From a virus (taxonomy: Duplodnaviria; Caudoviricetes), in the IMG/VR virus record IMGVR_UViG_3300037790_000129, positions 3,502 through 67,501 of that record: DNA of 64,000 nucleotides, one strand, 5' to 3'. The notes under the pieces were generated by a model, which was not told the DNA's origin, searched no databases, and saw only the letters and a program-made list of their open reading frames with translations. This document shows positions 5,441 through 14,907 of the stretch, in pieces. The translations under genes were made by a program, and so were the position numbers. The first letter of the stretch is position 1. Each line of letters opens with the position of its first letter.

Positions 5441-5469
5441 AAAAAAAGCGTTCAGGATTTGAACGCTTT
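5441..5469 (-). terminator. Intrinsic terminator inside the early operon
   Basis: AAAGCGTTCA-ggatt-TGAACGCTTT stem with a U-run on the minus strand. Confidence 0.75.
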
Positions 5470-8740: not shown

Positions 8741-8769
8741 AAAAAAGCTACCCGTTTAGGTAGCTTTTT
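8741..8769. terminator. Bidirectional intrinsic terminator inside the early operon
   Basis: AAAAAGCTACC-cgttta-GGTAGCTTTTT. Confidence 0.78.
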
Positions 8770-10285: not shown

Positions 10286-10381
10286 CGTGTATGGATTTAT
10301 ATTTATACTACCTCAAGGCGTATTTAAACGCCCTGAACGCTCCAAGCTTAAAGCCTTTTTATACTCGCTTGGTCGAGTTGG

Positions 10382-11973: not shown

Positions 11974-12042
11974 GTGTGTATGGATTTTATTTGTTAACCT
12001 CCGCCCAATTAAGGCGGAACGCTTGCAGCTTAATAACCTTTT

Positions 12043-12237
12043 TTAAGTCGCTGCATCGACTTTGTTTAACTCTTTCAACTGCTCGGGGAACTCAACGCCT
12101 TGAGTGTTAAAAGCTTCTCTAGTGTCTGCCGTTACTTTCCCGTATATTTTTAAATCTGTTTCAACAAAAAATAAAAGTGTTTCGTTTATCTCTTGCTTTA
12201 ACTCCTGAAGTATTTTTAATTTCTTGCTTTGCTGCAT
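12043..12237 (-). CDS. Hypothetical protein
   Basis: 64-aa ORF coupled to the upstream gene. Confidence 0.55.
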   Translation of the reverse strand: MQQSKKLKILQELKQEINETLLFFVETDLKIYGKVTADTREAFNTQGVEFPEQLKELNKVDAAT

Positions 12238-12612: not shown

Positions 12613-12792
12613 TTAGTCTAAATATATTTCAGGTTGTGAGCTATAAAAACAATTATATAATGTGGTAAAATCTTTTTTAGATTCAACGGCTAAAGCTTTT
12701 AATTTCTCTAAAACTTCATCAAATTTTGTCTTATCCGTTAAGAACTCTTTTTTTAATGAATTAATCTTAATTATTATTTCTTTTGTACTCAT
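12613..12792 (-). CDS. First ORF of the early operon (59 aa, not in ORF track)
   Basis: Manual translation MSTKEIIIKINSLKKEFLTDK...IYLD; preceded by AATCCATACAT. Confidence 0.55.
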   Translation of the reverse strand: MSTKEIIIKINSLKKEFLTDKTKFDEVLEKLKALAVESKKDFTTLYNCFYSSQPEIYLD

Positions 12793-13145
12793 AATGTATG
12801 GATTAATATTTGTTGATACCTCGAAAGGTTGCGAACCTTTGCCGTTAACTCTGTTTTAGTGTATGAATTAAGGTGAACCCGCTATACTTGGCACGAGGTA
12901 ATTATCTTTTTTATAGTTGTATTAATCCGCCCAACTTTGGCGGGGTGCGTATCTTTTTAAATATATTATCGCTCTACATTTCACAAATTAAACGGGATTT
13001 CCACCCGATTAAATAAGCTGCCTTAATAGCTGCCTAAATAACTAATTGAAGCGGTAGCGTTATTTTATATTTATACTCAATACGCTTATGGCTGTGCGGA
13101 ATCCGTCCGACCTTAAAGCCGTTGCGGTAATTCCTACCATATACA

Positions 13146-13163
13146 CAATATTTCAATGAACTT
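13146..13163 (-). promoter_or_regulatory. boxA-like antitermination element in the early leader
   Basis: AAGTTCATTGAAATATTG about 35 nt downstream of the promoter, between a small hairpin and TGTGT. Confidence 0.45.
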
Positions 13164-13201
13164 AAAAAACTTGGCTAAAATTAGCGGCCGTTTTGTGATT
13201 A

Positions 13202-13233
13202 CAAATATATAACAATATTGTAATAAAATGCAA
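13202..13233 (-). promoter_or_regulatory. Leftward Bacteroidota sigma70-type promoter (early operon)
   Basis: TTG-N21-TATATTTG fits the TTTG/TTG...TAnnTTTG consensus. Confidence 0.7.
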
Positions 13234-14241
13234 CAATAATGTAAAAAAATTATAACAGAAAAAACGCAAATAACTCCTAAAGATAGTAAATACAAGGCTT
13301 TACAAAGTATGTTAAAATTTTGTTAGAGGTTAAAAAAATACAATATCAATGCAACAAAATTGTAATTTATACCAAAACTCAAGAACTTAAAGCAGTCACG
13401 AAAACAAACTAATAATAACAACCAAGCAGCAACCCAAACCAAGCAAGGCAATAAGCTAAAGCAATTAAACATAAAAGAATAATAAATAAAGTTTATTGTA
13501 AATTGGTTAGAATGGAGGGAGGCTGTAAGCAAGCCAAGCACCTAAGCGAAGTAATTTTTTAAAGTCGATCAACAACTAAAAAAAACGGGTTCGAATCTAT
13601 AAAGGATTACACAACAAGCTAATAAAATACTGACAGTCAACCAGTTACAAAGTTAATATAGTTATTTTAAGCAATATTTTACCAGCAAATAGCCGTCCTA
13701 AAAAATCAACCCTAAAAAAACCAGTACTAAGCAAGCGAGTAAAAATAAAAACGAGTTAACACCAATCAAAAAGCTAAAAAATTTGATTGAACCCGGATAA
13801 ACAACACCCCATACCAATAAAAAAAACGATTTCGGAACTGGGCGCACCCGCCCGCATACTAGGTATCCGCCCCCACACTACGCACATACAACACATTTTT
13901 TTTCTATGGATAGATATATTCACACTAAACCATTAGTCCATTAGGGCCTATTCTATTGAACAACTAAGCGATGCGATTATGTTGTAATAATGATATAAAT
14001 TATTCGTGCTGATATAAAAACTCTATGGGTAAATGATTTTTAAGATTAAGTGTTTGGATTAGATTTTAAGTAACTCATTACGTTTAATGATTATATAGCC
14101 TTTTATTTTCATTAAGGATTGATTATCAAACAATTACTAAAAAGTTAGTGCATACCACGGGAATAATTAGTTCCCACCACGTACATTAACTGTTAACATA
14201 ATTTTAACATAAGGCAACAATCGACTAACAAATAAATAATG

Positions 14242-14249
14242 TAAGTTTG
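14242..14249 (+). promoter_or_regulatory. Rightward promoter -7 element
   Basis: TAAGTTTG 30 nt upstream of the first rightward ATG; -33 element poor. Confidence 0.6.
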
Positions 14250-14250
14250 T

Positions 14251-14280
14251 TGTAATTAAAGTGTAATTAAAATGTAATTA
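14251..14280 (+). repeat. Three tandem 11-bp direct repeats TGTAATTAAAR
   Basis: tgtaattaaa-g-tgtaattaaa-a-tgtaatta(tg); overlaps the predicted TSS and start codon. Confidence 0.85.
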
Positions 14281-14477
14281 TGAAAGGTAATAAAAGAGAT
14301 TTCAGTATTGCTCCCAAGAGTAAAGCTTCATTAAATGAAGGCCCTAAGATGCTACAACAACAAGTTAGAGTTCTTTCTTTAGATAGAGCCATACAAGCTC
14401 ACGCTACGGATAAAGAAATTAATATTGTTGAATTAGCTAAGGAGATTGAGGAGTATGTGAATAGGCCTTTTGAATAG
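14280..14477 (+). CDS. Hypothetical protein
   Basis: 65-aa ORF after the promoter. Confidence 0.55.
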   Translation: MKGNKRDFSIAPKSKASLNEGPKMLQQQVRVLSLDRAIQAHATDKEINIVELAKEIEEYVNRPFE

Positions 14478-14504
14478 TATTTAATTATTTAAAGATTGAT
14501 AAAT

Positions 14505-14576
14505 AGCGAGGTAGAGCAGAGGTAGCTCGGAAGGCTCATATCCTTCAGGTCGTTGGTTCGAATCCAACTCTCGCTT
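14505..14576 (+). tRNA. tRNA with CAT anticodon (Met; initiator-like body with atypical determinants)
   Basis: Acceptor AGCGAGG/TCTCGCT, D arm GAGC/GCTC, anticodon arm GAAGG-CTCATAT-CCTTC, T arm GTTGG-TTCGAAT-CCAAC; CCA not encoded. Confidence 0.9.
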
Positions 14577-14622
14577 CAGAAATCCAATCGTGAGGGTAGC
14601 TCCCATAGCGTAAAGGGTTGAA

Positions 14623-14694
14623 GCCTTACTAGCTCAATTGGTTAGAGCGTCTGGATTAACTAGGAGGTTCAAGGTTCAAATCCTTGGTAAGGTT
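14623..14694 (+). tRNA. tRNA-like gene with a shortened (5-nt) anticodon loop; pseudo-tRNA or mimic, Asn-like
   Basis: Acceptor GCCTTAC/GTAAGGT, D arm GCTC/GAGC, T arm CAAGG-TTCAAAT-CCTTG, but anticodon arm TCTGG-ATTAA-CTAGG. Confidence 0.7.
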
Positions 14695-14805
14695 CAAATT
14701 TAGAGAGGATCGAAAGCCATAGGCTTGGCATAGAAGCTGTCATTTGGTGAGTAGTAGCAAAGTAGATTCAAAGCAGGAATTATGCGCCTGTTTAGTTATT
14801 TGGAT

Positions 14806-14907
14806 ATGAAGCTAGTTATTATCGTATTGGTAGTTTTTATAATAGTTGCAGGATTACGTTTTGTATGGAATATCCTTAACGAGCTTATTCACGAAAACAG
14901 ATATTAA
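14806..14907 (+). CDS. Small single-TM peptide (33 aa, not in ORF track)
   Basis: MKLVIIVLVVFIIVAGLRFVWNILNELIHENRY; ends 1 nt before the next ATG. Confidence 0.45.
   Translation: MKLVIIVLVVFIIVAGLRFVWNILNELIHENRY

Follow-up and report, generated by a model that had tools for sequence, protein, structure and literature searches.

A putative host-type rrn boxA at the head of the predicted early operon of a Bacteroidota prophage

The leftward early operon of a Bacteroidota prophage begins with an untranslated leader that contains an exact copy of the boxA element from the rRNA (rrn) operons of its host family. Because this copy stands at the start of the early operon, the prophage most likely borrows the Nus antitermination of its host, in the manner reported for phage T7 in E. 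coli. Sequence comparison gives good support to this co-option of host rRNA antitermination, and we propose that the 18-mer at 13163–13146 is probably a working rrn-type boxA. Unless a locus is named, positions refer to the window, which is the whole stretch of 64,000 nucleotides that was analyzed. The features are listed in Table 1.

The source is an IMG/VR provirus of 67.5 kb, and the same DNA is contained in a 179.6-kb JGI metagenome contig. The host flank of the prophage corresponds to L013:11685-20423, with host genes from approximately 1.2 kb past the end of the IMG/VR record. Ordinary bacterial genes are found past the prophage end, specifically those of an aldehyde dehydrogenase, CorA, TruA, and succinyl-CoA ligase. 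The aldehyde dehydrogenase showed the best similarity to Mesonia (71% and 70%), followed by other Flavobacteriaceae. Judging from the similarity of the flanking genes, the prophage host is a Mesonia-like Flavobacteriaceae bacterium. The public sequencing runs containing the prophage DNA are three pond metagenomes (DNA), and no RNA run was present among those listed.

A 2-kb gene-free region (12793–14845) separates the leftward block (minus strand, genes up to 12792) from the rightward block. Since the leftward genes lie on the minus strand up to 12792, the leader is read on the same strand from about 13200 to the first ATG at 12792 and comprises 408 nt (12793–13200). The early 59-aa and 116-aa first ORFs had no match in PHROG. 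A scan of the early region for minus-strand TAnnTTTG sites in intergenic DNA gave only two that are preceded by a TTG. The predicted promoter in front of the leader is one of them, and its −7 box is the same as that of the host-family rrn promoters. Transcription would start near 13195.

Table 1 Positions of the features in the window and of related elements in other phages.
Feature	Position	Strand	Remarks
Bacteroidetes-type sigma-A promoter (predicted)	13202–13233	−	TTG at 13233–13231, 21-nt spacer, TATATTTG at 13209–13202
AU-rich hairpin GCUAA-UU-UUAGC ("boxB" of the preliminary description)	13174–13185	−	−2.8 kcal/mol, z +0.13
rrn-type boxA (putative) AAGUUCAUUGAAAUAUUG	13146–13163	−	Matches flavobacterial rrn leader and spacer; identity with Maribacter reaches 13144
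UGUGU ("boxC" of the preliminary description)	13143–13147	−	Overlaps the 3' end of the extended boxA
55-nt branched hairpin right after boxA	13087–13141	−	−17.3 kcal/mol, z −1.97, 8/200 shuffles as good
Tandem 12-nt direct repeat with AGGCAGCU twice	13016–13039	−	92% identity
Hairpin CGGG-UGGAAAU-CCCG, then UUUAAUUUGU	12993–13007	−	−5.3 kcal/mol, z −0.63; no terminator call
GC hairpin CCGCC-AAAGUUG-GGCGG without a U tract after it	12927–12943	−	−9.3 kcal/mol, z −1.31
Closing structure UACCUCG...CGAGGUA around two hairpins, then AAUCCAUACAUU and AUG	12817–12900	−	−19.7 kcal/mol, z −2.3
First ORF of the leftward operon	12613–12792	−	59 aa, Lys/Glu-rich, no family match
Pistol ribozyme	11993–12061	−	RF02679, 63.0 bits (gathering score 34.5); untranslated spacer in the transcription unit of the leader
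Second Pistol ribozyme	10306–10378	−	RF02679, 66.0 bits; untranslated spacer in the transcription unit of the leader
Canonical intrinsic terminator in the leftward block	8741–8769	−	AGCUACC-UAAAC-GGUAGCU, then U7; read directly
Second canonical intrinsic terminator	5445–5469	−	10-bp stem, then U8; genes beyond
boxA of Cellulophaga phage phi46:3	L225:2501-2518		KC821622; related loci L229, L230
tRNA/tmRNA-associated IMG/VR loci			L119, L120, L122, L134, L136, L158, L162, L167, L168, L176, L194, L204, L207, L111

The exact 18-mer, AAGTTCATTGAAATATTG (13163–13146), occurs once in the 64-kb window and in none of 100 shuffled sequences, and it is the sole match with up to two mismatches in the 67.5-kb virus record. 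It is the only motif of the leader that lies far beyond chance. The 18-mer begins 39 nt past the −7 box and runs in the direction of the leftward genes (the promoter and the start are predicted), and about 350 nt of untranslated RNA extend from it to the first start codon. In the minimum-energy fold boxA is unpaired, and the centroid fold offers just a weak 5-bp alternative. A coincidental match in AT-rich noncoding DNA would agree with the AT-rich composition of the motif and with the number of looser versions (up to three mismatches), which are present at the chance rate (6 found and 5.1 expected). Against this stand the shuffled sequences and the reversed control pattern, which gave approximately two matches in an estimated total of ~420 Mb, corresponding to ~3e-4 expected per 64 kb; the position and the strand of the 18-mer also fit. 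The probability left for coincidence is minute, and this reading is effectively refuted by the reversed controls and shuffles.

The 16S genes were mapped in five Flavobacteriaceae genomes (19.6 Mb), and the upstream leader was readable in four of them. All four rrn leaders contain the pattern AAGTTCATTGA[AC][AG]TA[TC]TG at approximately 140–180 nt 5' of the 16S gene. In this comparison, which was made with relatives of the prophage host (aldehyde dehydrogenase identity of up to 71%), the Maribacter rrn boxA and its next two bases were the same as the phage sequence (20/20 nt), and those of Mesonia ostreae and M. maritima were identical at 17 of 18 positions with the difference at one variable position. 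Scanning of the five genomes with the pattern gave 11 matches, compared with one for the reversed control. Nine are located ~140–180 nt upstream of mapped 16S genes. The other two, in the draft genome of M. maritima, were not placed beside a 16S gene because the single 16S gene of this genome abuts a contig end. In 121 Flavobacteriaceae genomes, approximately 103 pattern matches were distributed over 58 genomes, compared with a single match of the reversed control, and the genomes without a match may simply be those without assembled rrn operons. Within the family, the pattern was located almost solely at rrn operons.

An Rfam-annotated rrn operon (L227) has one boxA about 100 nt before 16S and, past the two spacer tRNAs, a second one that precedes 23S by about 90 nt. 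The boxA of E. coli has the same layout in the leader and the 16S–23S spacer. The core of the motif, GTTCATTGAMA, fits the gamma-proteobacterial boxA consensus GYTCTTTAANA at 9 of 11 positions (PMC5725501). From its placement in the rrn leader and spacer and its likeness to the consensus, the 18-mer motif is recognized as the flavobacterial rrn boxA, of which the phage copy is exact. The preliminary description of this DNA had named a GUUCAUUGAC-type boxA for flavobacterial rrn leaders, and the leaders read in four genomes bear this out. The alignment that it suggested, of 13146–13163 with boxA from the rrn leaders and spacers of the host family, revealed the same sequence and not an unrelated one. 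NusB (PF01029) was above the cut-off in all five host-family genomes, and the Nus interaction network is reported to be conserved in Bacteroidota (PMC13753749). Our literature search yielded nothing on a boxA from flavobacteria or other Bacteroidota, nor on an rrn-type boxA in their phages; Arnvig et al. 2008 may cover the bacterial side.

Exchange of DNA between prophages and hosts does occur, and the exactness of the match would also suit a piece of host rrn leader that was gained by recombination and is now carried unused. Such an inert fossil is very unlikely. The identity ends at the ~20-nt boxA core, beyond which the phage flanks resemble none of the rrn leaders examined, and unrelated phages share the core alone, at a similar type of site and in a similar orientation.

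This recurrence was observed in IMG/VR, where at least 116 stretches matched the pattern, including many chance matches inside genes. Among the matches listed, the variable bases were of the rrn type in 18 of 31 noncoding copies and in 8 of 75 coding or chance copies (Fisher p ~1e-6), and the latter proportion is near the 1 in 8 expected for three variable positions. The noncoding copies among the listed matches typically lie 10–30 nt past a TAnnTTTG-like promoter. Many of these noncoding copies, within the same listed set, head or sit within phage tRNA arrays or directly precede a tmRNA gene, and all 15 of the listed copies that are associated with tRNA or tmRNA genes are co-directional with those genes. 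The exact 21-mer of the prophage had no further copy in IMG/VR. In L106, GAAUUACCGCA follows boxA as in the prophage, yet the phage is unrelated and its leader is short. A match of the boxA probe in a Lak megaphage was rejected as a chance match, being inside an ORF with a mismatch in the core.

Cultured phages also carry the element. In the Cellulophaga baltica phages phi46:3 and phi13:2, the exact 18-mer precedes the first gene of an operon by about 120 nt and lies in a divergent intergenic region of 1.1 kb, whose layout resembles that of the prophage. In Cellulophaga phage phi18:3, the match extends over the first 17 nt of the 18-mer. The leader is conserved among these three phages and the first genes differ. 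Small ORFs (e.g. gp052) are annotated across the Cellulophaga phage boxA and are probably spurious. Approximately 160 nt upstream, AATTCATTGACYTATAAG forms a second, degenerate boxA-like motif. A blastn search of cultured phages with the promoter and boxA region gave chance matches only. Judging from the tRNA- and tmRNA-associated copies in IMG/VR, host boxA looks like an element used generally for untranslated phage transcripts.

A boxA on early RNA might also act against transcription or translation. The early leader RNA, carrying an exact host boxA and presumably strongly transcribed, might titrate NusB–S10 off the host rrn operons as a shut-off decoy, or the boxA complex might repress the early genes of the phage, since boxA elements of 5' untranslated regions can be repressive, as documented for the mRNA of E. 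coli suhB (PMC5725501). However, suhB and the other boxA elements surveyed in that study lie within ~50 nt of the start codon (PMC5725501), and the prophage boxA is ~350 nt upstream. In addition, the other phage copies, among the matches listed, mostly head untranslated tRNA or tmRNA units, for which repression of translation would be meaningless and protection from termination sensible. We thus consider the decoy or repressor function quite unlikely and return to antitermination.

In the proposed mechanism, host RNA polymerase would initiate at the TTG/TATATTTG promoter, ~30 nt 5' of boxA, and the host NusB–S10 (NusE) pair would bind boxA in the nascent RNA. NusA and NusG would join, and the polymerase would adopt the Rho-resistant, faster form that is normally kept for rRNA operons. 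The modified polymerase could then cross the ~350 nt of untranslated leader and the ribozyme spacers into the ~13-kb leftward early block. A need for antitermination is plausible in a unit with a ~350-nt untranslated leader, two ribozyme spacers, and two terminators without a later consensus promoter. The scan for TAnnTTTG promoters found none after either terminator (8741–8769 and 5445–5469) though genes follow, and terminators with downstream genes but without a consensus promoter are consistent with staged readthrough. In E. coli, complexes formed at rrn-type boxA are effective against Rho-dependent termination and far less so against intrinsic terminators. Because of this weakness on intrinsic terminators, boxA alone may not explain the passage of two hairpin-U terminators, and an extra phage factor may be needed at these two sites.

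Compared with the boxA of host rrn operons, the prophage element has the sequence of the Flavobacteriaceae rrn boxA, is single-stranded in the predicted fold, and occupies a promoter-proximal position on the sense strand of a long unit. It differs in that it heads a protein-coding operon and is a single copy, with no partner for a leader–trailer helix and no demonstrable boxB and boxC companions. Lambdoid nut sites consist of boxA and boxB and act with the N protein. By analogy with nutL and nutR of lambda, the phage boxA proposed here would recruit NusB–S10 for processive antitermination of the early operon. In contrast to nut sites, the sole hairpin near the prophage boxA is upstream of it and no better than chance, the product of the first ORF is rich in lysine and is not an arginine-rich N-like peptide, and boxA has the complete host rrn form instead of the weakened nut version. 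Neither a downstream boxB hairpin nor an arginine-rich N protein, the marks of a lambda-type nut site, was found in the prophage.

The T7 system is similar in a different manner. According to a passage in PMC3709561, which cites Savalia 2010, T7 has a boxA antitermination element downstream of its early promoters. The likeness to the prophage, as far as that passage describes T7, is a host-type boxA behind early promoters of the host polymerase (A1–A3 in T7; PMC3709561), and no N-type protein or boxB partner was found for the prophage element. Unlike T7, the prophage has a host in Bacteroidota and the boxA variant GUUCAUUGA rather than GCUCUUUAA, and it is temperate (integrated); a single promoter precedes its leader of 408 nt, and Pistol ribozymes follow downstream. 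As T7 and lambdoid phages already show the principle, the principle itself is not new. The searchable literature gave no description of the Bacteroidota boxA or of its use by Bacteroidota phages, a use deduced here from sequence. Little work exists on how transcription elongation is controlled in Bacteroidota and their phages, and the prophage locus and the three cultured Cellulophaga baltica phages provide a concrete, mutable element for testing whether Nus and boxA operate in this phylum and are exploited by phages. The boxA elements before phage tRNA arrays and tmRNA suggest a rule that phages guard their untranslated transcripts as cells guard rRNA. A bolder generalization, which we regard as unlikely, would be that Bacteroidota phages make untranslated RNA (leaders, ribozyme spacers, tRNA arrays, and tmRNA) Rho-proof with the host rrn boxA, and that the early operon of the prophage is a mimic of an rRNA operon, transcribed by an antitermination complex of the rrn type and cut by Pistol ribozymes, in which the ~350 nt after boxA are a functional folded RNA.

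The motifs enumerated in the preliminary description are all present in the sequence, on the minus strand. Their proposed order as an rrn-like boxB-boxA-boxC arrangement did not hold up. The hairpin taken as boxB is no different from chance, as 108 of 200 shuffles fold equally well. The boxC of E. coli belongs to the leader–trailer helix of 16S (PMC10250234), which has no counterpart in the prophage leader. The bases after boxA are not conserved in rrn leaders or phage copies; host-family leaders run on as UGUGGAGA, UGUUGACAG, or UGAAUUGACAG, and the phage copies vary too. The suggestion of host antitermination co-option is backed by the sequence identity with the host-family rrn boxA, and the parts that invoked boxB, boxC, and a structured RNA are not supported.

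For the latter part, just two local folds, 13141–13087 and 12900–12817, are mildly better than shuffles. The first, which includes GGUA-GGAAU-UACC at 13138–13126 (minus strand), had no comparative support. The fold of the whole 408-nt leader has a z-score of −1.0, with 14 of 100 shuffles equal to it, and that of the opposite strand is −0.6; the label of a 400-nt structured leader is thus not borne out. The Rfam search of the leader gave no match at E ≤ 10, either on a 431-nt stretch alone or on 3.5 kb. No coding potential was found in the leader, even when TAA readthrough was allowed. A hidden ORF expressed by TAA readthrough with the UUA-anticodon tRNA was rejected because no convincing frame and no new frames near the leader were detected.

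In the fetched regions of the nearest relatives, no homologue of the leader was found. The relative identified by a 433-aa early protein (L002, 47% identity) has a different layout without homologous noncoding DNA. Those identified by the 116-aa early protein (L221–L224, 69% and 54%) have other genes or a short leader instead, and no boxA was found in their fetched regions. Since these relatives have neither the leader nor boxA, boxA is not required by all kin of the prophage. The leader contains no traces of pseudogenes, and the idea that it is a remnant of the extra genes of these relatives was discarded. Without a leader homologue, a test of covariation is impossible.

These results bear on the possibility that the leader itself is a functional structured RNA (a regulator, sponge, or scaffold) and that boxA ensures its full-length synthesis. 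Its 408 nt without coding potential, also under TAA readthrough, and the two local folds with z-scores of about −2 argue for such an RNA. The z-score of the whole leader, the lack of an Rfam match at lax thresholds, the lack of a homologue and hence of covariation, and the lack of a cleavage site or terminator between the leader and the first gene argue against it, and we regard it as unlikely. The search results also leave the preliminary term of an unclassified noncoding RNA without an Rfam match or a homologous leader in the nearest relatives to lean on. As coding potential, an Rfam family, and a homologue are all lacking, we take the remainder of the leader for a long 5' untranslated region that contains a few local hairpins rather than for a demonstrated RNA gene.

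Of the three "hairpin-GAGGU-AAUCCAUACA-AUG" architectures seen in the preliminary description, two are explained by the Pistol loci. Pistol ribozymes cleave at GU, and GAGGU contains that GU. The possibility that the leader ends in a third Pistol copy was considered and rejected; at its 3' end, only the terminal hairpin, GAGGU, and AAUCCAUACA are shared with the Pistol loci, and the core is absent.

Several further elements were observed in the divergent region. On the rightward side, there are a tRNA-Met gene at 14505–14577 (plus strand) and an odd tRNA at 14623–14695 (plus strand), which has the anticodon UUA by ARAGORN, an Rfam tRNA score of 51 bits, and a shortened anticodon loop. No second boxA was found on this (tRNA) side of the region. 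Approximately 1 kb of further gene-free DNA (13300–14240) contains a GC-rich block at ~13830–13885 and had no Rfam match; it may hold an origin of replication, operators, or RNA. A second, weaker promoter-like site, TAACTTTG, is located at 13655–13648 on the minus strand. Close to the early promoter, an operator-like pair of 18-nt direct repeats, AATGCAACAAnAnTGTAA, lies 121 nt apart (13227–13244 and 13348–13365), overlapping or preceding the promoter, and an operator-like pair of 21-nt tandem repeats is present within 13210–13251. The direct repeats at the early promoter may be repressor sites of the prophage.
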